Part shown: in pieces, positions 1 to 15,005 of the stretch | How the letters are laid out: each line of letters opens with the position of its first letter | Numbering within the stretch: the first letter of the stretch is position 1 | Origin: an uncultured Candidatus Bathyarchaeia archaeon | GTDB lineage: Archaea > Thermoproteota > Bathyarchaeia > Bathyarchaeales > Bathycorpusculaceae | Assembly: GCA_964450845.1 (NCBI GenBank) | Contig: CAYVGZ010000020.1 | Coordinates: 1-20,978 of the forward strand | Direction of reading: 5' to 3' | Length of the DNA stretch: 20,978 nucleotides | Notes under the pieces: model-generated | Told to the model about the DNA's origin: nothing | Databases searched by the model: none | What the model saw: the letters and a program-made list of their open reading frames with translations, nothing else | Made by a program: the position numbers and the translations under genes

Positions 1-1
1 A

Positions 2-160
2 GCCGTAGGCATGAAAACAGTTTTTGTTCCTTCACAGTTTTACTCACTTGAAAACCTGCAGGAAAGCCAACAGAAACCAGACATAATTATGAAAGACACA
101 CTAGAACTATACAAAAACTTCCAATCTTTCTTGAATAACTTAACGATTTATGGTTTATGA
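2..160 (+). CDS. C-terminal fragment of a probable HAD-family hydrolase (5' truncated by window edge)
   Basis: My translation from position 2: AVGMKTVFVPSQFYSLENLQESQQKPDIIMKDTLELYKNFQSFLNNLTIYGL*, with TGA at 158-160. 'A.GMKTV.V ... PD.I' resembles the end of HAD-like hydrolases. Not in the ORF track because it has no start in the window. Confidence 0.5.
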   Translation, partial: AVGMKTVFVPSQFYSLENLQESQQKPDIIMKDTLELYKNFQSFLNNLTIYGL

Positions 161-174
161 TGCGGTCGCCGGGA
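161..174 (-). repeat. Duplicated 3' end of tRNA-Gly (att-like direct repeat, left copy)
   Basis: TGCGGTCGCCGGGA at 161-174 is identical to 4635-4648, the last 14 nt of the tRNA-Gly gene. It ends exactly at the discriminator base. Confidence 0.8.
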
Positions 175-240
175 CTAATACCCAAATGGGTTCAAGTCCA
201 CCATTCTGGCAATTGAAAAAACTTGAACGTCTGCAAAGCC

Positions 241-268
241 GAGGGTTCGAATCTCTCCCGGGCTACCA
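241..268 (+). other. tRNA 3' fragment (T-arm + acceptor 3' strand + ACCA), tRNA-Gln-like
   Basis: GAGGG-TTCGAAT-CTCTC-CCGGGCT-ACCA gives a 5-bp T stem (one G:U), a canonical T loop, a 7-nt acceptor strand and ACCA. The ...GGGCT-ACCA end resembles archaeal tRNA-Gln (5' AGCCC..). No D arm or anticodon arm can be folded upstream. Confidence 0.65.
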
Positions 269-322
269 TGACACCCTAGTTAGACATTCTTTCGAACACT
301 CGGTTTAACGATGGTAGACAGA

Positions 323-348
323 AGGGCGGGGTGGGATTTGCACCCCAC
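323..348 (-). other. Degenerate tRNA-like 3' fragment
   Basis: Minus strand reads GTGGG-GTGCAAAT-CCCAC-CCCGCCC-T: a T-arm-like hairpin with an 8-nt loop followed by a 7-nt GC-rich acceptor-like strand. Isotype not assignable. Confidence 0.4.
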
Positions 349-480
349 ATCAAGTGGAGACATCTTCCAAAGTCCTTACAAGCAGCTGGCTTTCTGCTAT
401 TATTGATATACCATACAAAACAAAGGCAAACCTGCACACAAATGTTGTTCTGCTTCCTAAAGGAAGGCGGCGAGAGCATA

Positions 481-520
481 TTTATAAAGGTCAAATGCTA
501 TACTTATAGCTAAATGGTGA
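481..520 (+). promoter_or_regulatory. TATA box and ribosome-binding site upstream of the YegP gene
   Basis: TTTATAAA at 481-488. GGTGA at 516-520, 6 nt before ATG 527. Confidence 0.55.
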
Positions 521-526
521 ACATAA

Positions 527-721
527 ATGTCCGCAACACCAAAGTTTGAGATCTACAAGGATACAGCAGAGAAATTCCGATTCAGACTGAAGGCAGCGAA
601 CGGCGAGGTCATAGCGTCTGGTGAAGCTTATGAGTCGAAAGACGGCTGCAAGAATGGCATTGAATCGGTAAAAACGAACGCTCCGATAGCAGAAATCGTC
701 GATCTGACACAATCGCAATAA
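527..721 (+). CDS. YegP/DUF1508 family protein (single domain)
   Basis: KFEIYKD..EKFRFRLKAANGEVIASGEAYESKDGCKNGIESVKTNA matches the DUF1508 pattern closely. TATA and RBS present. Confidence 0.9.
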   Translation: MSATPKFEIYKDTAEKFRFRLKAANGEVIASGEAYESKDGCKNGIESVKTNAPIAEIVDLTQSQ

Positions 722-767
722 GAACACGGTTCTTCATAGGAAACTCCCAACTTCCCTTTTTTGTGAC

Positions 768-1838
768 ATGCAATTAGAGGAGGAGAATACTTTGGAGAGT
801 GAATCAACCTTCCGTACAAAAGCCGAGAGAATGTTAAAAGACAAAAGGCTGATATTCGTTATTGTCGCTGCCGTTCCGACGCTTGTAGTCGGCTTGATTC
901 TTGCGTTCGAAGCCACGGTTGGCATCAGTTTCCTGATCATTGGGCTGGCCCTTCTGGCGATTTCGGCGGAGAGAGCAGTCGCGCATTCCATAGGCTTTGC
1001 GACCGCGTTGAAACTATCTCCCCTGATGATAGGTCTCGTAGTAGTGTCGCTGGGCACTGACTTCCCGGAAATCGTGAACTCGATCGTATCGTCAGCGATG
1101 GGCCATGTTGACATAAATGTGGGCGATTCGTTTGGCTCCATACTCACGCAAATGACTCTGGTTCTAGGCCTGCTTTCCTTTGTTGGGGGAGCCTTCAAAG
1201 TCAAAAGAGAGGAAATTGCAGTCATGGGCTCATGTGAAATTCTAGCATTCATAGCTTCGGTTTCAATGGTCGAGAAGGGCTACATTTCAAGGATGAACGC
1301 CTTTTTCCTTGTGGCCAGCTGGCCCCTTCTCATGCTGATAACACGAAGCATGATGAAGAGTCCTCCTTCACTGAACAAGACAAACAGAAGATGGTCTCAC
1401 CATCTTCTCCTCTCCATTCTCGGTTTCATCGGAGTGGCTGGAGGAGCATACATTACGGTGCAATCCGTGATCGCGCTCTCAGCCACTCTTTCAATACCTG
1501 AATATTTGGTCAGCTTCTTCATTGTCGCCTTCGGAACATCCTTGCCGGAGATCGTGGTGGACCTGGCAGCCATTAGAAAGAAGCAGTACGAAATCGCAAT
1601 AGGTGACGCTATAGGAAGCAGCATAATAGACGCCGGTTTCTCAATAGGGATTGGAACCCTGTTTTTCCCAGGCACTGTAACCGCGTCGCTCGCCGAGAAA
1701 ACTGGTCTGTACGCCCTGATGTGTTCAATAGTGGTTGTGACGATGCTTGCTCTGCGTCAGAAGCACGACAGAAAGTCGGGGCTGCTTCTCATTATGCTCT
1801 ACGCACTGGCTTATCTTGCGATATTCGCATTGTTCTGA
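768..1838 (+). CDS. Ca2+/cation antiporter (CaCA superfamily, YrbG/NCX_Mj-like)
   Basis: About 10 hydrophobic segments in two internal repeats. Alpha-1 is GTDFPE...GDSFGSILTQ and alpha-2 is GTSLPE...GDAIGSSIID. Confidence 0.9.
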   Translation: MQLEEENTLESESTFRTKAERMLKDKRLIFVIVAAVPTLVVGLILAFEATVGISFLIIGLALLAISAERAVAHSIGFATALKLSPLMIGLVVVSLGTDFPEIVNSIVSSAMGHVDINVGDSFGSILTQMTLVLGLLSFVGGAFKVKREEIAVMGSCEILAFIASVSMVEKGYISRMNAFFLVASWPLLMLITRSMMKSPPSLNKTNRRWSHHLLLSILGFIGVAGGAYITVQSVIALSATLSIPEYLVSFFIVAFGTSLPEIVVDLAAIRKKQYEIAIGDAIGSSIIDAGFSIGIGTLFFPGTVTASLAEKTGLYALMCSIVVVTMLALRQKHDRKSGLLLIMLYALAYLAIFALF

Positions 1839-1846
1839 GAACCGTT

Positions 1847-2404
1847 TCAAGTGTACTCGTCGGTGGCGCTCACTTCTTCTTCGTCAGACTCTTGTTCCGC
1901 TGCTCCAGAGCGTTCCAGATACATTGCCGTGATCTTGTCCACATGTTCGCCTTTCTTGGCTTTTCTCCTTGCTTGAATGTCTATTGCCAGCATGAACAGA
2001 TAGGGCACTGACAGATAAACCACCGCCAAGAGCGGATTGCCGAGCAAAAACGCGACACCTAGCAGAACCGGGGATTGGCCGCTTAAGTAGACGCTCATGG
2101 AATCTTGGATGATAAAGGCGAACAGTACTAACGTTAAGCACACGAAGAACTGCACGAGTACGCTTCATTTCTTGCCAAGCAGTAGAGATGGGATTACAGA
2201 CGACAAAACGAAAACCCATGCAAAGGCGTGTACAAAGATAATTATGTGCATCCTGAGAAGTAGCCATTCACCCAGAGCTGGCCACAGCATGTTGAAGGAA
2301 TTCAGCACTGTCGATACTGCCGTCTGGGTGAAGATTTGATAGGTAACCATCACGGTCCAGGCAACAGAAACATACAACGGCGTCATCAAAGTTGCCTTAC
2401 TCAT
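1847..2404 (-). pseudogene. Multi-pass membrane protein interrupted by an in-frame TGA (2165-2167)
   Basis: Track ORFs 2165..2443 and 1847..2155 are in the same frame: ...CTT GGC AAG AAA TGA AGC GTA CTC GTG CAG TTC (LGKK*SVLVQF). Likely start is ATG 2404 (MSKATLMTPLY), which overlaps the upstream stop as ATGA. Confidence 0.7.
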
Positions 2405-2598
2405 TCTAGGTGCACTCCAATCGAAAAGATGCCCAAAACCCATGAAAGCCGTACTGCTTTGGCGAACGCCAAAAGTTTCATTTTGCCGTTGTCAAAAAAA
2501 GAGAGTTGTTCTTTTGATCCTTGCCTAGCTTTTCTTCTCTGTTTCCTACGGGCACGTTGCCGACGTTTCTTCTTCTTAGACCTCTTCTTGAACGGCAA
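2401..2598 (-). CDS. Small Lys/Arg-rich protein with hydrophobic C-terminal part
   Basis: TTG at 2598 is preceded by GAGG and by TTTTAAAT about 30 nt upstream. Sequence is (M)PFKKRSKKKKRRQRARRKQRRKARQGSK...VLGIFSIGVHLE*. Its stop overlaps the next ATG (ATGA). Confidence 0.5.
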   Translation of the reverse strand: MPFKKRSKKKKRRQRARRKQRRKARQGSKEQLSFFDNGKMKLLAFAKAVRLSWVLGIFSIGVHLE

Positions 2599-3084
2599 AT
2601 TTCCTCGCTTTATACTCCACGGGAGCATTTAAAAGGTTTGCTAATTACCTATAACAATAGCAAATCACTAATGCCAAATCGTTGGGAATTCCAAACCGGA
2701 GCCTGCGATGGTTCTGACAAGAGTAGGCGTGTTAGAAACTCATTAGTCATAGAGCTATTTAAATAGTCATTCTACTATACCATTAGCAATCAACCCAAAC
2801 AAGAACGCAAAGAACTTAGAAGAGTGGAGAAATGAAGAAAAAGCAGAAGAAGAAAACCGAACTTCCAAAGAGGTACAGGAAGAACAAGAAGTAGTCGCAT
2901 GCGCAGCACTAGTGTTTGCAGCATACTCTGCAGCTCCTTCTTTTATCGCGGATCTTCCAAGGAAACAAACCGTTTTGTTATGTAATCGATTCTCCAAGGC
3001 TGCACAAGATCATAATTGGCTATAACTATAGACAGCATCTATAATAATCCAATTCGTCTATACCCATCGTCTTTTCACAAATAT

Positions 3085-3110
3085 TATAAGAGGGTTGTTG
3101 ATTTCTTATA
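3085..3110 (+). promoter_or_regulatory. 7-bp inverted repeat overlapping the TATA box of the ArsR gene (candidate operator)
   Basis: TATAAGA (3085-3091), 12-nt spacer, TCTTATA (3104-3110). TATA-like TATTATAA at 3082-3089. Confidence 0.4.
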
Positions 3111-3413
3111 TTGAACAGAGGTTCTTGCTTGACTCTAGAAGAGATCGTTGCAACAGGCGAAGCAGCCTTAAAGATTGCTGACGCCTTAACCTCGACAAGT
3201 CTCAGAATACTGCAATTGGTTTCTCAGAAGCGTTTAGATGTTTCAACAATCGCCAGAAAATTAGACTTGAGTGAGGCTTACATGAGCGAACAGGTCCGCA
3301 TGCTTGAAGAAGCCAAGCTAATCAAAGTAAGCTATGAACGAGGGAAAAGAGGAATCAGAAAGCTGTGTGAATTGGCAGTCTCCAGAATAATCATAGTGAT
3401 CAAGCCTAACTAG
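3111..3413 (+). CDS. ArsR-like winged helix-turn-helix transcriptional regulator
   Basis: ALKIADALTSTSLRILQLV...LDVSTIARKLDLSEAYMSEQVRMLEEAKLIKVSYERG is an HTH plus wing. The true start may be TTG near 3129 (MTLEEIV). Confidence 0.85.
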   Translation: MNRGSCLTLEEIVATGEAALKIADALTSTSLRILQLVSQKRLDVSTIARKLDLSEAYMSEQVRMLEEAKLIKVSYERGKRGIRKLCELAVSRIIIVIKPN

Positions 3414-3511
3414 AATGGTGACACCGTAGACCCTCCGAGTCGCAGAGAAATATGAAGCACGCTTCACTCCAAGATGCATCAGGCAATCGATCATGATGCT
3501 CTGATCAGGAG

Positions 3512-3574
3512 ATGGACACTATACCAGAAAAGAAAGGGAAGAAAAAGAAGGGTTCAGCCAAGAAGTCTAAGTGA
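3512..3574 (+). CDS. Possible 20-aa Lys-rich micro-ORF
   Basis: AGGAG immediately upstream of ATG 3512; MDTIPEKKGKKKKGSAKKSK*. Very short, and could be a remnant or chance. Confidence 0.25.
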   Translation: MDTIPEKKGKKKKGSAKKSK

Positions 3575-3665
3575 CTTCCAAACATAGAATCCTTCGCCTC
3601 TTTTGCTACGTTCGCATTCACTCCGTTCTTTTTTCTGCAATTCCTTTCACAATATGATGGCAGTC

Positions 3666-4243
3666 CTATTTCTTAGATCGTTTGCTTTGGAAGTCACGCT
3701 TCAGGCACGGGCAGTATCGGTCTTCGATTCGATCATAATATCCTACTTCCCAGTGTTCTGTGTTCAGAATGCCATATTCTGTGCAGCCGAGCATCGAAGA
3801 TATGGTGTGGGCTATCTCAACTCTGTCATTGGATTCAAAGTATCTCTTCGAGCCATCTGCAAAACCAGTTTGCTCAGTTTACTGAGAAGATCACAGAAAT
3901 CCATGAATTTCTTTGGTCCGTACTTCGCAATTCTTTCATCAGGAGACCATGCAACGTATTTCTCAAGAGGATCTTTAGTATCTGGATCGACTGCAAACCG
4001 GCCACTAGCCATCAGTGTTCCAAGCTTGTAGTTGATCTTGCTCTTAACGATCTGCTTGTCTTTCGAATCGACTAATACACGAAAGCTGAAGATAACATCG
4101 TCTTCCAGATGGTCTCTTATTATGAAATGCAGACTCCTAACACCTTCAAGATCCTTCACAAATCCATAAAAACTAACAAGTACTCGTCGGACATCAGCAG
4201 GCTTGCATCTGAAGACTACCACACACCAGTCATCATCCGCCAT
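3666..4243 (-). pseudogene. Frameshifted hypothetical protein (one base apparently missing near 3840-3880)
   Basis: The track ORF 3812..4243 ends ...QMARRDTLNPMTELR*. The -1 frame continues open as (KR)YFESNDRVEIAHTISSMLGCTEYGILNTEHWEVGYYDRIEDRYCPCLKRDFQSKRSKK* to TAG at 3666-3668. Confidence 0.7.
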
Positions 4244-4546
4244 AAGGGATCCCTTAACAACAATTGATACGTGTTCTTCGTATTTATTCCCTTAGCGCAC
4301 GAGCCACAGGCAACTGCGTACCTGAGAAATCGGAAAGCTTTTAGCATTAGTCGAGTGATGCGCGCTATAACATGACGGGCGAAACACGACGAGCTCTCGG
4401 GTGAATAGCAAAAATGCGAGTAAAACCTAACTGTTTTGATAGCAATATTGCTAGTTTTTACTCGCAAAATAATAGTAAGCGAAAAATGTTTGAAGCGAGA
4501 GTTTGAAGCTACCTGCATTGCAGAAACAAGTACTTTTACCGGTAAA
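4243..4546. repeat. Cluster of perfect palindromes and an 11-bp inverted repeat
   Basis: TAAGGGATCCCTTA 4243-4256; TGCGAGTAAAA 4415-4425 / TTTTACTCGCA 4456-4466; TAGCAATATTGCTA 4440-4453; CTGCA-T-TGCAG 4513-4523; TTTACCGGTAAA 4535-4546. Confidence 0.85.
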
Positions 4547-4634
4547 CGTGTGTTCAAATTTCAACCCCCACTTACAACGTCCTAAATTGAGTTTCTTTAG
4601 CTGAAATAAGCTCAAATTATGCCTAAATTTAGAG

Positions 4635-4708
4635 TGCGGTCGCCGGGATTTGAACCCGGGTCGTCAGCGTGGGAGGCTGATGTCCTAGCCAAACTAGACT
4701 ACGACCGC
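4635..4708 (-). tRNA. tRNA-Gly (anticodon CCC), intronless, CCA not encoded
   Basis: GCGGTCG-TA-GTCTAGTTTGGCTAGGAC-A-TCAGC-CTCCCAC-GCTGA-CGAC-CCGGG-TTCAAAT-CCCGG-CGACCGC-A folds into a full cloverleaf of 74 nt. Confidence 0.97.
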
Positions 4709-4760
4709 TACTGCTACAGTAACATCTGACAGAAAATTAGCATAAAGTTTGCGTTCTAAC

Positions 4761-4781
4761 AAAAAAAGAAAGAAGAGGTTT
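4761..4781 (-). terminator. T-rich archaeal-type terminator downstream of pmbA
   Basis: Minus strand right after the TAG stop reads AAACCTCTTCTTTCTTTTTTT. Confidence 0.4.
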
Positions 4782-6107
4782 CTATTTGGATTTTGTTATG
4801 TGCACGTCTTTGATTAGAACGTAAGGCGATAACGATGGCGGATCTGCTTCGCCCCACCAATGTACATGTTGCCTTTCCTTCGAAATTCCAGCAATGTTGC
4901 CCAGTAAGCTCAAAGCATTGTCACTTACGCGTAAGTCCTTCAACGATTGCTTTATTTCTCCATTCTCGATTAAGAAAATGCCATCCCTAGGAATTGTTGA
5001 AAAGTCACCCTTCGCATAGTTTTGGAAACGCGTATACCAAGTGTTTGTCAGATAAAGCCCTCTCTTTACTTGTTTGAAGAGTTCCTCTCTATGCATGTCT
5101 CCAGAGTCCATTTCAATACTCCATGCATTCGGCGCAACCAACCCAGCATTAGCCGTGGTTTCAGTTTTGAATATTTTAGCTGTTGAGGTGTTATGAAGAT
5201 ATGTTTTAAGCACACCATGGTCAATGAAGACATTCTCCCTCGTTGAAACACCCTCATCGTCAAAAATGCGGTTAGCCATAGAATAGGCAGATGGAACATC
5301 TTTCAATGTCACGTTTTCAGGCGCTACTTTTTGGCCAAGTTTGTTGATGAAAACTGAAAGCTGAATTAGAATATTGAAAGCTGAAACCATTGAACCCCAA
5401 ACGCCAAGTAGTGAACCAAAAATCAAAGGATCATAGATAACATCATATACGCCCTCTTCACCAACTTTCGGATTCTTGGCTAACTTTGCAATTTCCCCAG
5501 CTTTACTCCCAGCTCTTGAAGGTTTAAAATCTTTCAGTGTTGAACTACATTCGACACCATGACCAGAAGCTTCTCTTTCCGAGAAAGCCCTTATTGAAAG
5601 CTCAATTGCTGATCGACTGTCAACACCAGCAGGTCCTTCAGAAGAAACCAAATAAACATCTTCGAATTTGGTAAAGAGTATGCCTCCGCTGTCAATTTGA
5701 GACCCAACTTCTTTTTCCGCAGCACCCATCGCTTCAAAGACATACTCACTGGGATCTTCTAAATCTTGAAGTTTCTTATCAGCATTACTTTTTGCATAGT
5801 GAAAACTGCCTTTTGCAAAACCTCCAAACATTGGGTTTTCCTTAGAAACCTTTGCCAACTCAAATAGTCTTTTAATGCTTGCATCAACTTTTTGAAAATT
5901 GTGTATCTGTGTAGCGACCACACGTTTTTTCCAAGCCAAATTAACATCTGTGACATAATCATTCCATGCAACAGTGATATCCATCTGGTTATTGCTGAAA
6001 CGCGCCTGCCTATATTTGCCAAAAGTAGTTCTAGCAATGACTTCGTCTGCGCCTAAGGCTTTCGCTTTCTTAACTATCTCTTCGGTTTTGTTGAGTATGT
6101 CATTCAT
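4782..6107 (-). CDS. pmbA: TldD/PmbA family protein, PmbA(TldE)-like non-catalytic subunit
   Basis: 441 aa with FDDEGV, TYLHN, TAN A G, G.FS and IENGEI motifs; lacks HExxGH. ATGA overlap with tldD. Confidence 0.88.
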   Translation of the reverse strand: MNDILNKTEEIVKKAKALGADEVIARTTFGKYRQARFSNNQMDITVAWNDYVTDVNLAWKKRVVATQIHNFQKVDASIKRLFELAKVSKENPMFGGFAKGSFHYAKSNADKKLQDLEDPSEYVFEAMGAAEKEVGSQIDSGGILFTKFEDVYLVSSEGPAGVDSRSAIELSIRAFSEREASGHGVECSSTLKDFKPSRAGSKAGEIAKLAKNPKVGEEGVYDVIYDPLIFGSLLGVWGSMVSAFNILIQLSVFINKLGQKVAPENVTLKDVPSAYSMANRIFDDEGVSTRENVFIDHGVLKTYLHNTSTAKIFKTETTANAGLVAPNAWSIEMDSGDMHREELFKQVKRGLYLTNTWYTRFQNYAKGDFSTIPRDGIFLIENGEIKQSLKDLRVSDNALSLLGNIAGISKERQHVHWWGEADPPSLSPYVLIKDVHITKSK

Positions 6108-7522
6108 TTTATGTACACTCCTCTAAGCCTAATACATGGACCACCAGTAGAAACAGGAACGCCTTGCATAGGATCACCTTTTCCGCAGGTTGCAGCATCA
6201 AATTTAATATTTTTAGAAACTGCGTCCACTGCTGTCCAAAACTTTTGAGTCGTGGTCTCGATTATTGGTCTCGCAACAGGATGTTTCAATTCTCCATTTT
6301 CTATCAGGTAAGCTTCTCTGCCAACGTAACGTTGGTTGAAACGTTTATCATCTATGTTCCATTCTGTGAACGATTTCATGTAAACCCCGTTCTTAACGCC
6401 TTCAATGAGCTCCTCTTCCGCCGTTTCGCCTGGTAAAACAAATGTGTTAGCCATGCGAACAATTGCTTCTCTGTCGTAGTTGACTGACCTTGAAGAAGCG
6501 TTACTCTTTGTTCCCAGTTTTGCAGCAGTTTCTCTATTGTGCAAGAACTCGTTTATTACACCATTTTTGTACATGTATCTGCGCCTTGCCTTAACACCCT
6601 CATCGTCATAAGCGTAATAGCCGTAACTGTGCTCTATTGTAGGATCATCAACTACCGTTACAACATCGCTTCCAATCTTTGTGCCAATCCAATAGGGACC
6701 GCCTTTGAATATGAAAGATCTTCCAGCTTGACTCATTTCTCGCCCTAAGATTCTATCAGCTTCCATTGGATGACCGCAAGATTCATGCGCTGCTATTCCT
6801 GTGACCTCAGAACCGCAAATGAGATCCATGGTTCCAGGTTTTATGGCTTTTCCCTTCGTTATGACATCCTTAAGAACCTTGGCGTTGTGAATCATTTTTT
6901 CGGTGGCGTTCCATTCTTGAAATGCTTCCCATCCGCCGCTATAACCAAATTGCTCGTAGGCTTGCTCGGTTTTTCCTTGCTCAGCAACTGTGATAAAGAC
7001 GAAAGCGGCTATTTTTGGGACAAATGAAGAAATGCGGGAACCTTCAGAGTTGACATAATATTTTGATGTTAAATCTGTTGAACACGAAGATGTTGTTGCA
7101 GCGATGTTTACTCCACATGAAGCCAAGGACTTGTCAATTTCCACAAATTTTGATATTTTTTCTTCGGGTGAAACGTTCTCTATTTTTTCTTTCTGATTGA
7201 CAGTCCACTTTGTTTCAATCCCTTTTTCTTCAGCAAACCTTATTTTGTCTTTTCTATTGGCTGCCTTAGCGTACTTGAACGCTAAATCCACTATTTCTTT
7301 TGCCTCTTCCTTTGTCCATTTGTTGGTTGAAGCAAAGCCTATTCCACCGTTGGCTATAACTCGCACACAGAACCCGCTGTCAACCGCAGACGCATAAGTC
7401 TCTAGAATACCACTTCTTAGTAAAAGCCTCTCTTGGATTTGGTTCTGCGCTCTCACTTCTGCATATTCAACGTTTTTGCTTTTCGCGTACTCCAAAGTAT
7501 AATCGACAATGTCTTCTTCCAT
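6104..7522 (-). CDS. tldD: TldD metalloprotease subunit
   Basis: HESCGHPMEADR zinc motif (HExxGH), YDDEGV, MANTF, C-terminal CGKG..Q.VPVSTGGP. RBS GGTGA. Confidence 0.92.
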   Translation of the reverse strand: MEEDIVDYTLEYAKSKNVEYAEVRAQNQIQERLLLRSGILETYASAVDSGFCVRVIANGGIGFASTNKWTKEEAKEIVDLAFKYAKAANRKDKIRFAEEKGIETKWTVNQKEKIENVSPEEKISKFVEIDKSLASCGVNIAATTSSCSTDLTSKYYVNSEGSRISSFVPKIAAFVFITVAEQGKTEQAYEQFGYSGGWEAFQEWNATEKMIHNAKVLKDVITKGKAIKPGTMDLICGSEVTGIAAHESCGHPMEADRILGREMSQAGRSFIFKGGPYWIGTKIGSDVVTVVDDPTIEHSYGYYAYDDEGVKARRRYMYKNGVINEFLHNRETAAKLGTKSNASSRSVNYDREAIVRMANTFVLPGETAEEELIEGVKNGVYMKSFTEWNIDDKRFNQRYVGREAYLIENGELKHPVARPIIETTTQKFWTAVDAVSKNIKFDAATCGKGDPMQGVPVSTGGPCIRLRGVYIK

Positions 7523-7629
7523 CTCTATTTCACCCTTTTAGAAGTTACAGTTGCATGAAACAAAAGATAAAACCTTTTAGGTTAAAGCTGAGATTTTCAA
7601 TGAAGCCCAAACAACAGAGGAGAAACCCG

Positions 7630-8778
7630 TTGAAAAAGTTTCCAGAGGTAAACACATACTTTTGGCAAGGAAGCGAAGCATGCGCTGAAGCAGCACTAGC
7701 CACAGGATGCCGATTCTTTGCTGGATATCCAATAACACCCGCAAGCGAAATAGCAGAATGCCTCTCGAAAAGGCTTCCACAAGTTGGAGGAATAGCCATT
7801 CAAATGGAAGACGAATTGGCTTCTATAGGGGCAGTTGTAGGCGCAAGTTGGACAGGCAATAAAGCAATGACCGCCACTTCTGGACCAGGTTTTGACCTAA
7901 TGCAAGAAACCATAGGCTGGGCATTTATGACAGAAACTCCATGCGTCATAGTTGACGTCCAAAGGACAGGCCCAAGCACAGGCCAAGCAACCAAATGCGG
8001 ACAAGGCGACGTCATGCAGTCACGATGGGGCACTCACGGTGATTATTCAGCAGTTGTCCTCTCGCCGAATTCCGTACAGGAAATGTTCGAATTAACAATC
8101 AGAGCATTTAACCTAGCCGAAAAATATCGCACGCCAGTTATACTTTTGGCAGACGAAGTCGTCGCACATATGAGAGAAAGAATAATCGTGCCTTCGTCAG
8201 AAAGTATAGAGATAATCAATAGAAGAAAACCAAAATCAGGTGAAAAAGCATTTTTTGGTTTGGAAGAAATCCCGCCGATGCCATCTGTTGGTGAAGGATT
8301 CAACATAGCTGTTACAGGATCAACGCATAACGAATATGGGATACGTTTCACAGCAGACCCTATAGTACATAGGCAACTTGTAGAGAGACTCAATAACAAA
8401 ATACAGAAGCATGCAGAAGAAATAGCTGAAGTGGAAACTTACAATATTGATGACTGCCAAATAGGCATTATTTCCTTCGGCTGTACTTCACGAGCAATCT
8501 ATGAAGCTGTTGAAATTGCAGAAGCAAAAGGAATAAAGGTGGGATACGTCCGCCTAAAAACCATCTGGCCTTTTCCAGAAAAAACTGTTAGGCAACTGGC
8601 GGAAACAGCAGAGAAGATTATTGTTCCTGAAATGAATCTGAAACAAATATTCTACGAAGTTCAGCGAGTTACAAACGGCTTGACAGAAGTGATTCCCCTC
8701 AACAAGATTGGTGGCGGAGAATTAATTACTCCGGAAGAATTGTTTGAAAAAATTCAGGGAAGTACCAGAAATGAGTGA
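7630..8778 (+). CDS. korA: 2-oxoacid:ferredoxin oxidoreductase alpha subunit
   Basis: FFAGYPITP, QMEDE, TATSGPGF, VDVQRTGPSTG motifs. Start refined to TTG 7630 (GAGGAG upstream); the track gives 7555. Substrate specificity is not determinable. Confidence 0.92.
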   Translation: MKKFPEVNTYFWQGSEACAEAALATGCRFFAGYPITPASEIAECLSKRLPQVGGIAIQMEDELASIGAVVGASWTGNKAMTATSGPGFDLMQETIGWAFMTETPCVIVDVQRTGPSTGQATKCGQGDVMQSRWGTHGDYSAVVLSPNSVQEMFELTIRAFNLAEKYRTPVILLADEVVAHMRERIIVPSSESIEIINRRKPKSGEKAFFGLEEIPPMPSVGEGFNIAVTGSTHNEYGIRFTADPIVHRQLVERLNNKIQKHAEEIAEVETYNIDDCQIGIISFGCTSRAIYEAVEIAEAKGIKVGYVRLKTIWPFPEKTVRQLAETAEKIIVPEMNLKQIFYEVQRVTNGLTEVIPLNKIGGGELITPEELFEKIQGSTRNE

Positions 8779-9604
8779 AACCTTTTCTATTCGACAATAT
8801 TTAAGACCCATACCCTTGCCTTTCTGTCCAGGTTGCGGTGGACTAACAGTTATGAGTGAATTTCTAAGGGCAGTTCACGAATTAGGCCACGAAAATCTGA
8901 ACAATTTTGTTTTCTGTAGTGGAATTGGCTGCTCCTCATGGATTCCATCACCACATTTTATGGCAGACTCTGTTCATACTCTGCATGGAAGAAGCATACC
9001 TGTGGCAACCGGAATTAAACTTCTGCGCCCAGGTTTGGATGTTGTTGTTTTCGGGGGAGACGGTGACATTGTTGGAATAGGTTTAAGCCACTTCATACAC
9101 GCAGCGAGGAGAAACTTGGACATTTTAGTTATAATGGTTAACAATATGGTTTACGGAATGACTGGTGGACAAGTTGCCCCAACAACACCATTTGAAGCAA
9201 AAACAACAACAACACCATACGGAAGCTTTGAACATCCATTAGACGCTGCGAAACTAGCTGTTGCAGCAGGAGCCTGTTATGTTTCACGTTGGACAACAGC
9301 TCACCCAAACGAACTCAAAAATTCCATAAAAAAGGCACTAAAAATACAGGGCTTCAGATTTGTAGAAGCTGTAAGCCAATGCCCAACAGCCTTCGGAAGA
9401 AGAGTGGGGCTAAAAGACGCTGGAGAAATGTTGAAATGGCTCAAAGAAAACGCCATTACAGTTAAGCAAGCAGAAAACTTGAACGAAGAAGATTTAACGG
9501 GAAAAATCGTTGTAGGCGAATTTGTCCAGAGACAGCGACCCACACTCGCAGAAGCCATATACAAAATAATTAGGGAGGCACAGAAAAAAGTTGAACAAAA
9601 CTGA
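8771..9604 (+). CDS. korB: 2-oxoacid:ferredoxin oxidoreductase beta subunit
   Basis: FCPGCG, SGIGCS, HTLHGR, TPP motif GDGD-X-NN (GDGDIVGIG...MVNNMVYGMTGGQ), SQCPT. Start refined to ATG 8771. Confidence 0.92.
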   Translation: MSETFSIRQYLRPIPLPFCPGCGGLTVMSEFLRAVHELGHENLNNFVFCSGIGCSSWIPSPHFMADSVHTLHGRSIPVATGIKLLRPGLDVVVFGGDGDIVGIGLSHFIHAARRNLDILVIMVNNMVYGMTGGQVAPTTPFEAKTTTTPYGSFEHPLDAAKLAVAAGACYVSRWTTAHPNELKNSIKKALKIQGFRFVEAVSQCPTAFGRRVGLKDAGEMLKWLKENAITVKQAENLNEEDLTGKIVVGEFVQRQRPTLAEAIYKIIREAQKKVEQN

Positions 9605-10133
9605 AGTGAGAATAAGTGGACTCGGCGGACAAGGCGTAGTTTTAGCAGGGCAAATATTAGGCAGAGCAGCAGTCTACGATGGAAAAAACGTTGTTCAAAC
9701 CCAAAGTTACGGAGCCGAAGCAAGAGGAAGTGCAGCTAAAAGCGAAGTAATAATATCAGAAGGCAAGATAGGTTTTCCAGCAGTCAGAAAATGCGACATA
9801 TTAATTGCGATGAACCAAAATGCTCTTGATAGACACTTTAAGGATTTGAAAGAAGACGGCGTACTGATAATTGATAGCACCGATCTAAACAAGATCCCGA
9901 GGACTAAAGCAAAAATATTCAAGTTTCCAGCAACAGAAATTGCCGAAAAAACGTTTGGAGCAAAAATCTATGCAAACATGTTTATGCTTGGTGCATTAAC
10001 GAAAATAACAAATATAGTGAGTGAAAAAGCCATAGAGAGAGCGATAGAAGATACAATTGGAAAAAAAGCCACAGATACAAATAGGCAAGCCTATAAAAAG
10101 GGGCAAGAGCTAATCCAAAAAGCCGTTCCATAG
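9591..10133 (+). CDS. korC: 2-oxoacid:ferredoxin oxidoreductase gamma subunit
   Basis: EVRISGLGGQGVVLAG, QTQSYGAEARGSAAKSEV, NMFMLGAL. TTG start overlaps the korB end. Confidence 0.92.
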   Translation: MNKTEVRISGLGGQGVVLAGQILGRAAVYDGKNVVQTQSYGAEARGSAAKSEVIISEGKIGFPAVRKCDILIAMNQNALDRHFKDLKEDGVLIIDSTDLNKIPRTKAKIFKFPATEIAEKTFGAKIYANMFMLGALTKITNIVSEKAIERAIEDTIGKKATDTNRQAYKKGQELIQKAVP

Positions 10134-10233
10134 AATCATCCAAGTGACGCACATAGAAACATGTGCCATAAACAGTTTCTTAAGGTATAACCAAGGCAAT
10201 ATGCAAGAACAAAATTTCTGCCGAAATGCAGCA

Positions 10234-11985
10234 TTATCTCTCTTCGATTGCCTTGATCTTTATTGTTGGACTTGCATGCACACGTTTTGACAAGTAAAAA
10301 GTCACAATTATGAAGATTGCTGTTGTGGCTATAAATATGTATACCAAGTTTCGAATATTTTCTATTTGCTCAGAATAATCTAACAGATGCTCCTGATAGG
10401 AATTGTTCAACTCGTCGAAGCTTAGTTTGAGCTGGTTATAATCAACTAAAAGGGTGGCATAGTTATTAATAAGAACGGCGTACGTTTGGTTCAAGCTATA
10501 AAGCGTCTGATAGGACACGTTCAATTCTTCAAGATTTTTCTGAAGCAGACTGTAATTACCTAAAAGAACGCTATAGTTGTCGCTAAGGCTATTATACATC
10601 TCATTCAAAATATCCAAATCAAACTGCAAAGCTGTGAAGTCAGCTAGAAGCCCTTGATACGCATCATTCAAGTTAGAGAACGATTGGTTTAGCGTGTTAT
10701 ACATACCAAGCAATTCATAGTATTGACGCAACGATGCAGAAGAGATTATTGTGACAACGCAATTATGTGAATAAGTGAAATATAAGCAAGCGAATGTCTC
10801 GTTTGAAGCATCAAACTCAGTTGGATCAGCCTCCTCATTATCGACTAATATGATATTCGGATGTTCCATTAACGCTGCAGGAATTTTGATTCTGCAGAAA
10901 CCAACTGCCCCATTTACAAGGGAGATATTAAAACTTATTATTTTGTTGCCCGTTTCTTTGCCAACTTGAAACTTAAAATCAGAAATTGTTGAATTGCTAA
11001 TAGTAGTAACACTATACTTTTCGTTTTCCCAAACGATTTTGAAATCAGAGAATGGTCCCATTAGAGGATAGTTATCTTGAACGTACGAGTTCATAGTGTA
11101 AGGAGTGTCTCCAATTCCATCTCCACCAAGGTCTTGCCCTTCGTAATCGTTCCAGTAGTTGCCTTCACCTTCATAATCCCAAACATTCATAGCATCACTT
11201 TCGACATTCTTTGTATTGTTAACGTTGTTGTGATAGAAAGTGTTATTGGCACTATCGAAGGAACAATACATTCCAACGTTTAAGTTGGCTGACACGTTAT
11301 TACCAGAAATTACGTTCTTGCTAGAAGAGTACAGATGAAATCCGTTATAGTTAGAGTATATGATGTTGTCTGAAACCATATTGCCATCAGAAGAATAGAG
11401 ATAGACTCCGTATTGGTTAGAGGAAAAAATGTTACTTGCAATCACGTTGTTGCTAGAAGAATAAAGAACGACTCCACTGTAGGAGTAGGTGGATATGACG
11501 TTACTTGAAATCGTAATGTTGCTTGAATAATATAGGCTGATTCCATCGTTGGTGGGGCTTAAGATCTTATTGTCGCTTATATCGCTGCCTACAGAATGGT
11601 CTACGAATATACCGCTGTCGTATGGGTTCACACCACTATTTCTTATAGTGAAGCCATTAATGTTTACATAGCTAACATTTATGTAAATAACAGTGCCAGT
11701 TCCTTCGGATCCTTTGCCATCAATGATGGTTAAGTTCACATCTTCTCCAATGAGTGACACAGTCTTGTTAACAACAACATTCTCAGTGTATATTCCTTTT
11801 TCCACAAAAATAGTACATCCTGAGCTTGCGTTATTTATGGCGTCTTGGATTGTTGGATAATCCGTTGGAACATAGATTATGCAAGTACTTGCTTTTACAG
11901 GGATTTTACATTTCGTTAAAAACATAAGAGACAACAAACAAACGATAGTTAATAAAACCAAAACTGTTTTCTTCAATTTAATCAC
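10234..11985 (-). CDS. Membrane-anchored surface protein: signal peptide, NosD/PbH1-type right-handed beta-helix, beta-rich domain, coiled-coil stalk, C-terminal TM
   Basis: Basic-hydrophobic N-terminus; VPTDYPTIQDAINNA; repeated G..LY.SSNN.I..N units; YWNDY.G.D..GDGIGDTPY; Leu/Tyr heptads; LVYIFIATTAIFIIVTFYL followed by a basic tail. Confidence 0.85.
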   Translation of the reverse strand: MIKLKKTVLVLLTIVCLLSLMFLTKCKIPVKASTCIIYVPTDYPTIQDAINNASSGCTIFVEKGIYTENVVVNKTVSLIGEDVNLTIIDGKGSEGTGTVIYINVSYVNINGFTIRNSGVNPYDSGIFVDHSVGSDISDNKILSPTNDGISLYYSSNITISSNVISTYSYSGVVLYSSSNNVIASNIFSSNQYGVYLYSSDGNMVSDNIIYSNYNGFHLYSSSKNVISGNNVSANLNVGMYCSFDSANNTFYHNNVNNTKNVESDAMNVWDYEGEGNYWNDYEGQDLGGDGIGDTPYTMNSYVQDNYPLMGPFSDFKIVWENEKYSVTTISNSTISDFKFQVGKETGNKIISFNISLVNGAVGFCRIKIPAALMEHPNIILVDNEEADPTEFDASNETFACLYFTYSHNCVVTIISSASLRQYYELLGMYNTLNQSFSNLNDAYQGLLADFTALQFDLDILNEMYNSLSDNYSVLLGNYSLLQKNLEELNVSYQTLYSLNQTYAVLINNYATLLVDYNQLKLSFDELNNSYQEHLLDYSEQIENIRNLVYIFIATTAIFIIVTFYLSKRVHASPTIKIKAIEER

Positions 11986-12037
11986 GTTTTCTTTTGTTAG
12001 ATTATAGAATTATTAAACGTTATGGGATGCGAAACAA

Positions 12038-12649
12038 TCAGCTCCGTGAGAGCATTTTCCCTAATATAATAGAACAAGCAACCGAAATGGAAAAGGCAAA
12101 AATGAAAATGATTGGATTAATAGTGGATTGCACGAGAGACCATACACCTGCTACGTATGATGCAACTGCCATCAAAACCAGTATGCAAATTTTGATAATA
12201 TTATTGCGTAGTTTAGCTGCGGATGTTTCTTTTTGGCTGGATATAGAGTGCAACATATTTTTTGCTTCTTTTATTTCCTCGTCTGTCGCAAGAATTACAA
12301 GATTTTTGTCAACATCTTGGAACTTGAAACTTGAAAGCGCATATCGCTGTAGATCCCAAGGTTTCTTCTTTGGCAAGATCCTAACAATATCGCTCTTTTC
12401 CATTTTTTTTAAAATTGTCTGAATTTTACGAATAAACTGTACGTCATTTGTCCTTTCTTCCCCGAATAATCTTTGTGTTAGGTTTTTGACGTCTGGAAAA
12501 TGCAGTTCCAATTGAAATGACGCAATTGCCTTGGCAAGATTATACTGATATTCGCCTTCTCGCAAACGTATATTGCTTACTTTATAGTTGGCATTCATAG
12601 TTTCTTCTAAAAATCGTATTTCACTCGGCGTTAGTCTACTTTGAGACAA
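12038..12649 (-). CDS. Putative membrane-tethered winged-helix protein (two C-terminal TM helices)
   Basis: PDVKNLTQRLF...FIRKIQTILKKMEKSDIVRILPKKKPWDLQRYALS resembles an HTH plus wing; two hydrophobic segments at the C-terminus. Start refined to TTG 12649 (GGAG upstream); the track gives 12688. Confidence 0.6.
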   Translation of the reverse strand: MSQSRLTPSEIRFLEETMNANYKVSNIRLREGEYQYNLAKAIASFQLELHFPDVKNLTQRLFGEERTNDVQFIRKIQTILKKMEKSDIVRILPKKKPWDLQRYALSSFKFQDVDKNLVILATDEEIKEAKNMLHSISSQKETSAAKLRNNIIKICILVLMAVASYVAGVWSLVQSTINPIIFIFAFSISVACSIILGKMLSRS

Positions 12650-12785
12650 GCTGTCTTCTCCATTCAATAGTGTCAATTGAAAATACATAAATGCTTCCGT
12701 TTTAACCTTTTACTTTTTCAATAAAGTCTACGGAAAAAACCCGTAATTTATTCAACGTTCACATTATAATAGGAGGAGGACGGTC

Positions 12786-13232
12786 ATGGCAAATTACATC
12801 AAAGGAATCGGTTTAAGTCGTCCGTTTCTGAGTGAGAAATGCAAGACTACTAAATTTCCCAATTTGCACAAGAAATATAGAAGTCACTTCGAGATCTTAG
12901 CTTTGGTGCTTGAGGCTATAAATCACAACGGGGCATCTCCATCGTCTATTGTGAGATACACGGGAATGAACTACAAGCAGCTTAAGAAATACCTAGGATC
13001 TCTTACCGACATCGGTTTTGTTGATGCGAATGCTATCGACGGCCAGATTTCATATAGGGTTAATGAAAAAGGACTAGCCTTTCTGAGACAGTATTATGTT
13101 TTACTGATGATGCTGTTAGGTGTATGCACAGAAAACAACCAATTAACATTGTTTATGAACATGAACAAGAACCTTGCAAACAAAAGCGTTCGTCAATATG
13201 CTTTGCAACATGATTTGCAACGCATGCCATGA
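12786..13232 (+). CDS. Winged helix-turn-helix transcriptional regulator (archaeal, HTH_45-like)
   Basis: YRSHFEILALVLEAI...IVRYTGMNYKQLKKYLGSLTDIGFV...YRVNEKGLAFLRQY. Strong RBS AGGAGGAGG upstream. Confidence 0.8.
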   Translation: MANYIKGIGLSRPFLSEKCKTTKFPNLHKKYRSHFEILALVLEAINHNGASPSSIVRYTGMNYKQLKKYLGSLTDIGFVDANAIDGQISYRVNEKGLAFLRQYYVLLMMLLGVCTENNQLTLFMNMNKNLANKSVRQYALQHDLQRMP

Positions 13233-13245
13233 TTAATGAAATACG

Positions 13246-13329
13246 GCGGAAAGGCAAGCGGAATGGTAGATTTCATGCTTTTGTTTCTCCGTTCTCTCTC
13301 GGCTCTTAAGCATGTTCCGCTTGCCCCGC
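13246..13329. other. Long bulged hairpin in intergenic DNA (candidate structured RNA or terminator-like element)
   Basis: GGCAAGCGGAA 13253-13263 pairs with TTCCGCTTGCC 13315-13325; CATGCTT 13274-13280 pairs with AAGCATG 13308-13314; outer GCGG/CCGC pair. 10-nt bulge and 27-nt pyrimidine-rich loop. Confidence 0.6.
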
Positions 13330-13536
13330 AAATGGAAAAGATTAAATCAAAAATAATCAAGTCCATAATGCTTTTTTACAAGCTCGGGACTTTTTGAAAA
13401 CGCATTTTTACTTAAAGCCGTTTCTTCAGCTTTTAATAAGAACTTAAACCCGATTGACGAATATATGATGGCAACACGTAGATATTTAACTGAAGCGCGA
13501 AACCATTTCATAAAATCAGTCACAATATTTAAGGAA

Positions 13537-13583
13537 AACCGTTACTTCAATAAAACTTGAAAACGGTTAATGCACTTTATAAG
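13537..13583 (+). promoter_or_regulatory. Nested inverted repeat immediately upstream of the purM TATA box
   Basis: AACCGTT-ac-TTCAA-taaaac-TTGAA-AACGGTT at 13537-13568. TTTATAAG at 13576-13583. Confidence 0.5.
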
Positions 13584-13616
13584 GGAATAATTAACCACTA
13601 AATGTGGGGGAAATCG

Positions 13617-14696
13617 TTGACTCGAAAAGTTACCTATGCAAATGCTGGTGTTGATCGAGAGTTAAGGGCTGCATCTAAAAAGGCTCTTCATATTTTGAAG
13701 GAAACTTACAAGTTTAGTTACTGTGGTGAAGTTATTCAGCTTCCTTATGGGAATATTTTTGCTTTTGAGAAAAATCGTTATTTGGATTTGGTGATTGAAG
13801 GTGTAGGTACAAAGGTTCTTGTTGCGCAGTTAGCTGAAAAATATGACACGATAGGGATTGATGGGGTGGCGCTGGCTGTTAATGATGTTATAAGGTCTGG
13901 CGCCAAGCCTTTAGCGATTGCAGATAATATTCATGCACAAATTTCAGACCCCGTCTTGGTTGGGGAATGGATGAAGGGCATAGTGAAAGGGGCAGTTGAA
14001 TCTGAATGTGTTGTGCCAAGCGGGGAAATAGGCGACGTAGCAGAAGTGATAAAGGGTTTAGTAGAGGGCAAAGGCTTTGACATGATCGTTGCGACAATAG
14101 GTGAAGTTACTGGGGACAAAATAATTTTTGGAAGAGACATAGAAGCTGGCGATGTTGTAATAGGCTTGCGGAGCTCTGGAATCCACAGCAACGGCGTATC
14201 CCTAGCAAGAAAAATCCTCTTCAAAAAATGGGGTGGAAAATACGAGCCTTATGATATTCCTGATGGGTTGAACAGGGAAATAGTATATGAAGTTTTGGAG
14301 CCGATGAGGATATATGTTAAGCCGCTGCTTGCCGTTGCGGACGAGCTTAAAGTTAAGGCTGCAGTGCACATTACTGGTGATGCATATTTGAAGTTTGACA
14401 ATTTAACACGGTTTTCTAAAGGTATAGGTTTTGAATTTGACAATTTCAATCCACAGCCTATCTTTGAATTGGTTCAGAAAACTGCTTCTGAACTCGGCGG
14501 CGAGATAATTGACGAGGAAATGTTTAAGACGTTTAATATGGGATGGGGCTTCGCAGTGATAGTGGACAAGGCAGTGAGAGACAAAGCAATAGATGTTTTC
14601 GGAAAAACTGGGGTGCAAGCTGAACAAATAGGCGTTGTAACGGATTCTGAAGGAATTAAGATTCATTATAAAAACAGGAAAATCATTTTGAAATAG
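13617..14696 (+). CDS. purM: Phosphoribosylformylglycinamidine cyclo-ligase (AIR synthetase)
   Basis: TYANAGVD, GVGTK, VNDV, GIHSNGVSLARK, VHITG, MFKTFNMGWG; next to purS/L/Q. Start refined to TTG 13617. Confidence 0.9.
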   Translation: MTRKVTYANAGVDRELRAASKKALHILKETYKFSYCGEVIQLPYGNIFAFEKNRYLDLVIEGVGTKVLVAQLAEKYDTIGIDGVALAVNDVIRSGAKPLAIADNIHAQISDPVLVGEWMKGIVKGAVESECVVPSGEIGDVAEVIKGLVEGKGFDMIVATIGEVTGDKIIFGRDIEAGDVVIGLRSSGIHSNGVSLARKILFKKWGGKYEPYDIPDGLNREIVYEVLEPMRIYVKPLLAVADELKVKAAVHITGDAYLKFDNLTRFSKGIGFEFDNFNPQPIFELVQKTASELGGEIIDEEMFKTFNMGWGFAVIVDKAVRDKAIDVFGKTGVQAEQIGVVTDSEGIKIHYKNRKIILK

Positions 14697-14716
14697 CAGT
14701 TTGCTTTGTTACTGAT

Positions 14717-14731
14717 GAAAGTGTTTAAATT
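14717..14731 (+). promoter_or_regulatory. BRE/TATA-like element before purS (possible leaderless internal promoter)
   Basis: Purine-rich GAAAGTG followed by TTTAAAT at 14724-14730; ATG at 14754. Confidence 0.4.
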
Positions 14732-14753
14732 TCTTAAAACTTAGACTTAACCT

Positions 14754-15005
14754 ATGAAATATCGCCTAAAAATTGAAGTTAGTTTGAAGCCGGGTCACAG
14801 CGACCCTGAAGGTGAAACAACAGCACGCTTGTTGAAAGAACTTGGCTATAGAGTTGAAACTGTAAATGTTGGTAAGGTCTACAGTGTGGTTCTTGATGCT
14901 GAATCTAGGAAAGAGGCTGAAACTAGAGCCGAAGAGATGTGTAAGAGGCTTCTTGCAAATCCAACGAAGGACAATTATGCAATCTTGATTGAGGAGGAAA
15001 AATGA
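14754..15005 (+). CDS. purS: Phosphoribosylformylglycinamidine synthase subunit PurS
   Basis: V.LKPG..DPEGET, VGKVY, MCKRLLANP motifs; 83 aa; ATGA overlap with purL. Confidence 0.95.
   Translation: MKYRLKIEVSLKPGHSDPEGETTARLLKELGYRVETVNVGKVYSVVLDAESRKEAETRAEEMCKRLLANPTKDNYAILIEEEK

Follow-up and report, generated by a model that had tools for sequence, protein, structure and literature searches.

According to accounts that reportedly include Reiter (1989), Williams (2002) and the Islander database, elements carrying a tyrosine recombinase integrate in tRNA genes, where attL holds the restored tRNA and attR a partial copy of its 3' part. When the same tRNA site is used again, successive integrations push the older att copies downstream and give tandem or nested arrays. 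In the SSV-type integration of archaea attP lies inside the integrase gene, which is split by integration into Int(N) and Int(C), and at the 3' ends of tRNA genes casposons produce duplications of roughly 14-15 bp. Partial tRNA genes found at the borders of islands have served to mark rearrangements, with examples in the Thermococcaceae (PMC9897764), and split tRNA genes have been described in Nanoarchaeum equitans and Caldivirga maquilingensis (PMC3218864).

The window analysed here, 20,978 nucleotides long, is the whole of contig C20 of a MAG from an uncultured Bathyarchaeia archaeon (G000; 120 contigs, 93% complete). Its sole tRNA gene is tRNA-Gly(CCC), at 4634-4708 on the minus strand, and four tRNA-like pieces are clustered within 190 bp at 161-348, starting 160 bp from the contig end. 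We compared this region with two congeners of G000 (G001 and G002) and with other relatives, among them G021, G049, G003, G064, G110 and G107. The original prediction had described in the cluster a Gly 3' end, a Gln-like 3' part with CCA, a third, degenerate T-arm with its acceptor strand and a weak T-loop, all of them devoid of D and anticodon arms. We found the four pieces where they had been placed. ARAGORN calls no tRNA at the cluster and the Rfam tRNA model has no match in positions 1-800, even at E<=10. The only Rfam matches obtained in 1-800 at that threshold were to microRNAs, at chance level, and merely reflect a hairpin at 236-306 that is described below.

These tRNA-like pieces are recombination-site leftovers at the far end of an island, a feature of an ordinary kind that is here unusually dense and mixed. 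We estimate at roughly three in four the probability that 161-348 is the attR junction of an integrase-less island of ~4.46 kb (175-4633), inserted in the 3' end of tRNA-Gly(CCC), and that this junction is a decayed composite. The features to which we refer are the following:

1-160, plus strand: HAD-family hydrolase gene of the host, 3' end (codon-wise conservation when aligned to 7 relatives; tblastn identity 58-69%)
134-160, minus strand: native tRNA-Gly(CCC) trailer, which overlaps the HAD gene at its end; its CCA is now TCA
161-174, minus strand: probable attR core, the displaced last 14 nt of tRNA-Gly(CCC), an exact direct repeat of 4634-4647
175-205, plus strand: element-side arm of attR ("fragA"), recurrent in relatives, which includes the T-loop-like motif at 189-199
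240-268, plus strand: tRNA-Gln 3' half with T-arm, acceptor strand, discriminator and CCA (28/29 to tRNA-Gln(CTG) of contig C76)
269-320, plus strand: trailer "Y" (~50 nt), found after tRNA-Gln genes and Gln fragments in many relatives
323-348, minus strand: 3' end of tRNA-Arg(CCT), its T-loop aberrant, which forms the terminal core of the cargo block (match to tRNA-Arg(CCT) of G001)
349-4511, no strand: cargo block, horizontally mobile to judge from its cross-genus identity, without integrase
527-721, strand not stated: DUF1508 gene (Pfam)
768-1838, strand not stated: Na/Ca exchanger (CaCA antiporter) gene (Pfam)
3111-3413, strand not stated: ArsR-type wHTH gene (Pfam)
3812-4243, minus strand: ORF of 143 aa in the cargo block, no family given
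4495-4511, plus strand: Gln T-arm remnant at the end of the cargo block, where G049 has a full Gln 3' half with CCA
4512-4633, minus strand: tRNA-proximal arm "LE", 122 nt, with copies elsewhere after Leu tRNA 3' ends
4535-4546, within the LE arm: perfect palindrome TTTACCGGTAAA
4634-4708, minus strand: intact tRNA-Gly(CCC), probable attL site, core copy at 4634-4647 (ARAGORN; Rfam, 67.6 bits)

The locus bears the standard signature of integration in a tRNA gene. It shares with the known islands an intact tRNA on one border and, on the opposite border, a direct repeat of that tRNA's 3' end; close relatives lack the insertion, the cargo passes from lineage to lineage, a relative's island that has a homologous arm encodes a tyrosine recombinase next to attL, and partial tRNA copies are markers of rearrangement as well. 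What is unusual is the absence of an integrase from the island, the length of the repeat, 14 nt compared with 40-60 nt in the cited archaeal cases, the presence on the attR side of extra cores of two other isotypes, which brings three isotypes into 190 bp, and the conservation of the block across genera. With tandem arrays the locus shares repeated cores separated by short remnants, seen here in the Gln-like units and elsewhere in the Leu fragments of contig C72 and the arms of G021, but the cores of the cluster are of different isotypes and in both orientations. Such a mixture requires recombination between elements with different targets, or the capture of foreign att sites, rather than the repeated use of one site. 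The archaeal host, the target in a tRNA 3' half and the integrase-less look of the islands recall SSV-type integration, whereas neither Int(N) nor Int(C) nor any integrase-like coding sequence was found at either border of the island, and the G021 recombinase is a whole gene beside attL, not split by it.

The insertion in tRNA-Gly(CCC)

The Gly piece (161-174, minus strand) is a 14/14 copy of the 3' end of tRNA-Gly(CCC), from the last T-loop base to the discriminator, and a likeness to the gene, with a degenerate T-loop, extends over 154-183 (23/30 positions). The two 14-nt copies have the same orientation and enclose ~4.46 kb. Beyond the displaced copy lies the end of the HAD gene, which adjoins tRNA-Gly in G010, G022, G011 and G002 and is, in several genera of the family, the native neighbour downstream of a tRNA-Gly gene. 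The TCA at 158-160 reads TGA on the complementary strand, where it also serves the HAD gene as its stop codon.

The empty site was found in both congeners. In G002, contig C136 carries the same two TldD/PmbA genes followed by tRNA-Gly(CCC) and ends in the T-arm, and contig C128 begins with the 14-mer and CCA, followed by a trailer resembling 134-160, a nitroreductase gene and HAD; this empty site is made of two contigs both broken inside the T-arm, whose adjacency we infer. In G001 (contig C24), TldD is followed by tRNA-Gly(CCC) with its CCA, and a convergent tRNA-Arg(CCT) lies 57 nt further on. Positions 134-174 match the start of C128 of G002 at 83%, and 154-174 match the sequence downstream of tRNA-Gly(CCC) in G001 at 20 of 21 positions; G001 and G002 are unlike each other downstream of this gene. 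Window positions 355-4360 were found in neither congener. Since both congeners have tRNA-Gly(CCC) with its CCA and native trailer but without 175-4633, this segment is an insertion. The original prediction had seen in the cluster stacked att scars of an element that had visited or captured several tRNA sites, and its main idea holds for the Gly piece, which is the attR core of an insertion that the congeners lack. The layout of G001 also suggested a simple inversion between convergent tRNA-Arg and tRNA-Gly elements, but the Gly core is still in its native orientation and beside its native flank, and we rejected the inversion on that account.

When attL, attR and attB were compared, we observed that attL is identical to attB through the discriminator and the next base, and attR from the 14-mer onward, except for the old CCA, which has become TCA. 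Both sites depart from attB only outside the 14-mer, as expected of a site-specific exchange, and the three-site comparison indicates that the exchange fell within TCCCGGCGACCGCA.

The same insertion explains why tRNA-Gly(CCC) has no encoded CCA in G000 and has one in G001 and G002, since everything after the discriminator was replaced. It had been proposed that the contrast between the Gln-like piece, which encodes CCA, and the local tRNA-Gly, which does not, may point to a different donor. This clue fails on two grounds: the tRNA-Gln gene of G000 and all those seen in the family encode CCA, and tRNA-Gly(CCC), which encodes it in both congeners, lost it through the insertion.

In G011 (contig C85, locus L010), the 3' part of tRNA-Gly(CCC) (gene at 1501-1575) is repeated in direct orientation over 63 nt, at 2345-2407, ~770 bp downstream; this att duplication is far longer than 14 nt and encloses a very small insert.

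On the side of the tRNA the island ends with the LE arm. Copies of this arm stand directly after tRNA-Leu(GAG/CAG/TAG) genes and Leu 3' fragments, both in G000 (C72, 2399-2531 and 4036-4197; C64, 1380-1466) and in relatives. The palindrome of the arm, TTTACCGGTAAA, has three exact copies in G000 compared with 0.16 expected, and occurs there only at such tRNA-core sites. A Leu fragment of C72 is in the same 14-nt register as the Gly piece. On this contig two Leu 3' fragments come after tRNA-Leu(GAG), both bearing an LE arm, which gives it the look of a tandem array.

Arms, cores and cargo in related genomes

The arm at 175-205 recurs beside Gly or other tRNA cores in G110, G107, G064 (twice), G135 and G049 (contig C9), as well as on contig C64 of G000. 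Its T-loop-like motif at 189-199 matches the T-loops of two or three tRNAs at 11/11 positions and lies within a motif of 19-25 nt (178-202) that is found again elsewhere, for example on C64 of G000 (21/22). The weak T-loop previously noticed here is thus present, and it is part of a conserved element arm, not necessarily a scar of its own.

Positions 158-194 are 95% identical to the right end of a 14.3-kb island from another genus, on a 372-kb contig of G021 (C24). This island starts at tRNA-Gly(TCC) with a divergent tyrosine recombinase of 445 aa and, 14.3 kb further on, closes with the arm and a 17-nt repeat; the 14-mer of the Gly piece, in an identical register, marks its borders. The recombinase (P0001), first gene beside attL, has a match to NF040815 (NCBIfam, archaeal XerA-type) that is weak though significant, with E = 4e-7, below the cut-off, and searches of PHROGs and PDB sequences with this candidate returned nothing useful. 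The G021 island (1488-15909 of locus L064, G021:C24:97500-115500) contains several copies of the arm. An ArsR-type regulator, a Mutator-like transposase, a Schlafen/AlbA_2 protein and a UvrD-PD-(D/E)XK helicase-nuclease are also encoded there, and these genes look like defence-type cargo.

The identity of the Gln piece to tRNA-Gln(CTG) of G000 rises to 29/30 when the base after CCA is counted, and the piece also matches tRNA-Gln(TTG) of G011 and G049 at 28/29 positions. In a survey of the sequences downstream of Gln cores, trailer Y was found behind intact tRNA-Gln genes in G000, G011, G049 and G170, and not behind those of G195, G010 and G100, which have other flanks. In G170, a complete genome, Y follows both tRNA-Gln genes, with no further Gln core. 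The trailer is either the native trailer of tRNA-Gln or an element arm. On contig C3 of G100 (L058, L057), the tRNA-Gln genes for CTG and TTG have a different downstream sequence, similar between the two over >70 nt, as would result from related elements inserted in each of them or from concerted evolution of the flanks.

The second half of Y and the arm at 180-216 each align as a decayed Gln 3' end, and from these alignments the cluster appears to hold three Gln-type units ~50-54 nt apart, of which the first and third are degenerate. The arrangement of a Gln core, ~54 nt and an inverted core recurs with different inverted cores. Positions 236-306 form a hairpin with z = -2.8 on both strands, which contains a 13-bp inverted repeat formed by the trailer and the Gln T-arm on its 5' side; by eye we saw no convincing covariation in it. 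Longer folds, of 155-300 on the plus strand and of 205-350 on the minus strand, were no better than those of shuffled sequences (z = 0.08 and -1.0, respectively). We considered an inverted copy of the Gln T-arm in 236-306 and set it aside, as an alignment that treats the segment as a decayed Gln 3' end in direct orientation is just as good. In the precursors of intact tRNA-Gln genes that have trailer Y, this hairpin could compete with the folding of the tRNA.

The third piece, previously described as a degenerate T-arm and acceptor without a named isotype, is present and can now be assigned to Arg(CCT): 324-345 match tRNA-Arg(CCT) of G001 (L009, c1643-1718) at 21/22 positions, the T-loop having an extra base. 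The same aberrant T-loop occurs in G064 (C223). In G000 itself the tRNA-Arg(CCT) gene is represented by nt 1-54 alone, with which contig C68 begins. Together with the adjacent 20-30 nt (324-376), the Arg core recurs in at least 10 genomes, and in G107 the same Arg-side arm is accompanied by a Leu-like core and by a C-terminal tyrosine-recombinase remnant of 135 aa. The comparison of the fragments with the tRNAs of the host and its relatives, asked for at the outset, has therefore provided matching Gly, Gln and Arg(CCT) genes, and the reading as att scars extends to the Gln and Arg pieces, which are joined to arms that recur beside the same cores in many genomes of the family.

From 355 onward the cargo is 93% and 87% identical to contig C3 of G049, and 91-93% identical to contig C54 of G003. 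The backbone genes, on the other hand, are only 71-75% identical to those of G049 and G003 and 88-89% identical to those of the congeners, from which we conclude that the 4.2-kb block at 349-4511 moved recently between genera. Besides this cross-genus identity, its horizontal mobility is indicated by G064 (C223), where a Gln remnant and a partial Arg core connect the last part of the block with its first, in a circularly permuted junction. The block bears different cores at its ends, Arg on the left and the Gln remnant and tRNA-Gly on the right, so that the order of events is not recoverable.

No Pfam integrase was detected among the ORFs of the island, and tblastn with two integrases of G000 gave nothing there. 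At the junction loci of relatives (G110:C43, G020:C2 and G064:C223) only cargo-type genes were found in the search for an integrase, and the G000 integrase on contig C11 has no tRNA fragments nearby. Since the island contains neither an integrase gene nor a remnant of one, we infer its integrase-mediated origin from the relatives.

The Gly core, the arm and the Gln core occur together at 77-79% identity in G110, G049 (C9) and G064 (C44). This conservation in other genera indicates that most of the stack arrived with the island, and it contradicts the idea that the stack was built in place by successive integrations. The insertion has displaced the original 14-nt 3' end of the Gly gene, which still borders on its native trailer and HAD, and the intact tRNA-Gly now ends in sequence supplied by the island. 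The inverted T-arm-like arm, the near-intact Gln 3' half with its trailer and the inverted Arg(CCT) end that caps the cargo entered together with the island. In the scenario that we propose, the pieces would be cores and arms of att sites for tyrosine-recombinase integrative elements whose crossover would fall within the final ~14 nt of a tRNA gene. Elements related to one another but directed at different tRNAs would have integrated into or beside one another, recombined and decayed, and any remaining mobility would depend on an integrase acting in trans. Probably no piece of the cluster is a working part of a tRNA.

Other contigs of G000 also carry tRNA fragments. A diverged Gln 3' half with trailer lies on C19 (13122-13190) and a 53-nt 3' fragment of tRNA-Gly(GCC) on C32 (16128-16180); both are probably borders of other islands. 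Contigs C52, C60, C61, C68, C74, C76, C83 and C48 have ends in or beside tRNA genes, and some of these contig-end tRNAs have long identical stretches in common, for example Met and Val(CAC) on C52 and C60, which suggests that tRNA-linked repeats or population variation break up the G000 assembly. Outside the window, the longest contig of G000 (C1, 196.6 kb) has at least 15 tRNA genes on one strand at ~167-186.4 kb, of bacterial or phage type and nearly all with an encoded CCA, unlike the archaeal tRNAs elsewhere in the MAG; a large phage or virus is one possible explanation for C1, mis-binning another. A promoter scan of the window used a bacterial-type consensus and is uninformative for an archaeon.

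Alternative readings of the cluster

Chance was assessed by a census of the 3'-terminal 20-mers of 27 archaeal tRNAs, with up to 3 mismatches, in 1.44 Mb outside the tRNAs called by ARAGORN. This census gave ~20 loci, several of which are intron-bearing tRNAs that ARAGORN missed, and two of the loci are 77 bp apart in the window. By arithmetic from these numbers, ~0.003 matches are expected per 190 bp. The clustering exceeds this expectation, and chance does not explain it.

The cluster could instead be a working attP with several targets, its Gly, Gln and Arg cores in alternating orientation being kept by selection so that the element enters several tRNA genes. The unit of Gly core, arm and Gln core persists in other genera at an identity where ordinary intergenic DNA no longer aligns, the spacing of Gln core and inverted core is kept while the inverted core varies, and the same arms are found beside different tRNA cores. 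The junction on C223 of G064 links cargo ends through a Gln remnant and an Arg core, and the islands downstream of tRNAs in relatives look like one- or two-gene units parted by such junctions. However, two of the cores are visibly decayed, the Arg core by the insertion in its T-loop and the Gln core in its degenerate first and third units, and the conservation could just reflect the recent spread of one composite. We found no case of one element in two tRNA genes by way of two of its own cores, and no integrase is linked to the island of the window. For these reasons we consider a working multi-target site unlikely. If it were true, a multi-core attP would let a trans-acting integrase place small integrase-less cassettes, a loosely integron-like stacking in Bathyarchaeia; the likeness to integron attC cassettes is an impression gained from the cassette-like runs in relatives.

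An assembly chimera, in which reads were mis-joined at a T-arm sequence in common near the end of a contig, would fit the position of the cluster 160-350 bp from the contig start in a MAG whose contigs often end at tRNAs. The same order of pieces was nevertheless recovered in independent assemblies from other genera (G110:C43, G049:C9, G064:C44, G107:C76 and G021:C24), and the T-loop words in common are only ~11 nt long, which makes a mis-join very improbable.

A further suggestion saw in the pieces the 3' halves of split or trans-spliced tRNAs such as those known from Nanoarchaeum and Caldivirga. The resemblance lies in stand-alone tRNA 3' portions, one of them the nearly perfect Gln piece with its CCA; in addition, the MAG has no assembled tRNA-Gln(TTG) and its tRNA-Arg(CCT) is truncated at the start of C68. 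This truncation is accounted for by the many contigs of the MAG that break at tRNAs sharing sequence, and intact genes for tRNA-Gly(CCC) and tRNA-Gln(CTG) are present in G000. Relatives with the same Gln/Arg junctions have full-length tRNA-Gln and tRNA-Arg(CCT) as well. Both a 5' half and a complementary leader forming a bulge-helix-bulge junction were looked for, and neither was found: BLAST of the full tRNA-Gln against the MAG returned the intact gene on C76 and two 3' fragments, with no free-standing 5' half, and the sole reverse match to 200-240 is a chance-level stretch of 15 nt on C4 (E = 0.66) with no tRNA-like neighbour. Moreover, the pieces start in the T-arm, not in the anticodon region as in the split tRNAs, and two are decayed; the Gly piece is just 14 nt long, the T-loop of the Arg piece is broken, and the Rfam tRNA model, as mentioned above, does not recognise the cluster. 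The split-tRNA alternative thus receives no support, and we hold it to be extremely unlikely.

Finally, a target-site duplication made by a transposase or casposase aiming at tRNA 3' ends, instead of a recombinase core, would agree with the fixed length and register of the 14-nt repeat at Gly and Leu sites, but we give this next to no credence, since no terminal inverted repeats pair the sequence from 175 onward with that up to 4633, no Cas1, polymerase or transposase gene is present in the island, the G021 island with the same arm has its tyrosine recombinase beside attL and a repeat of 17 nt, and the three-site comparison confines the departures from attB to positions outside the 14-mer.

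Mobile DNA beside tRNA genes in Bathyarchaeia

The attR reading of 161-348 delimits a recently acquired island with a CaCA antiporter, a DUF1508 gene and an ArsR-type regulator in the genome of an uncultured member of the Bathyarchaeia, and it accounts for the missing encoded CCA of tRNA-Gly(CCC) in G000. Fragments such as these should not be annotated as tRNA halves or as pseudogenes of unknown origin. Across the family, the arms and cores, namely the palindrome-bearing arm, the T-arm-like arm and the tRNA-Gln trailer, mark mobile DNA beside tRNA genes; they could help to map islands in these MAGs and to explain why assemblies break at tRNAs.
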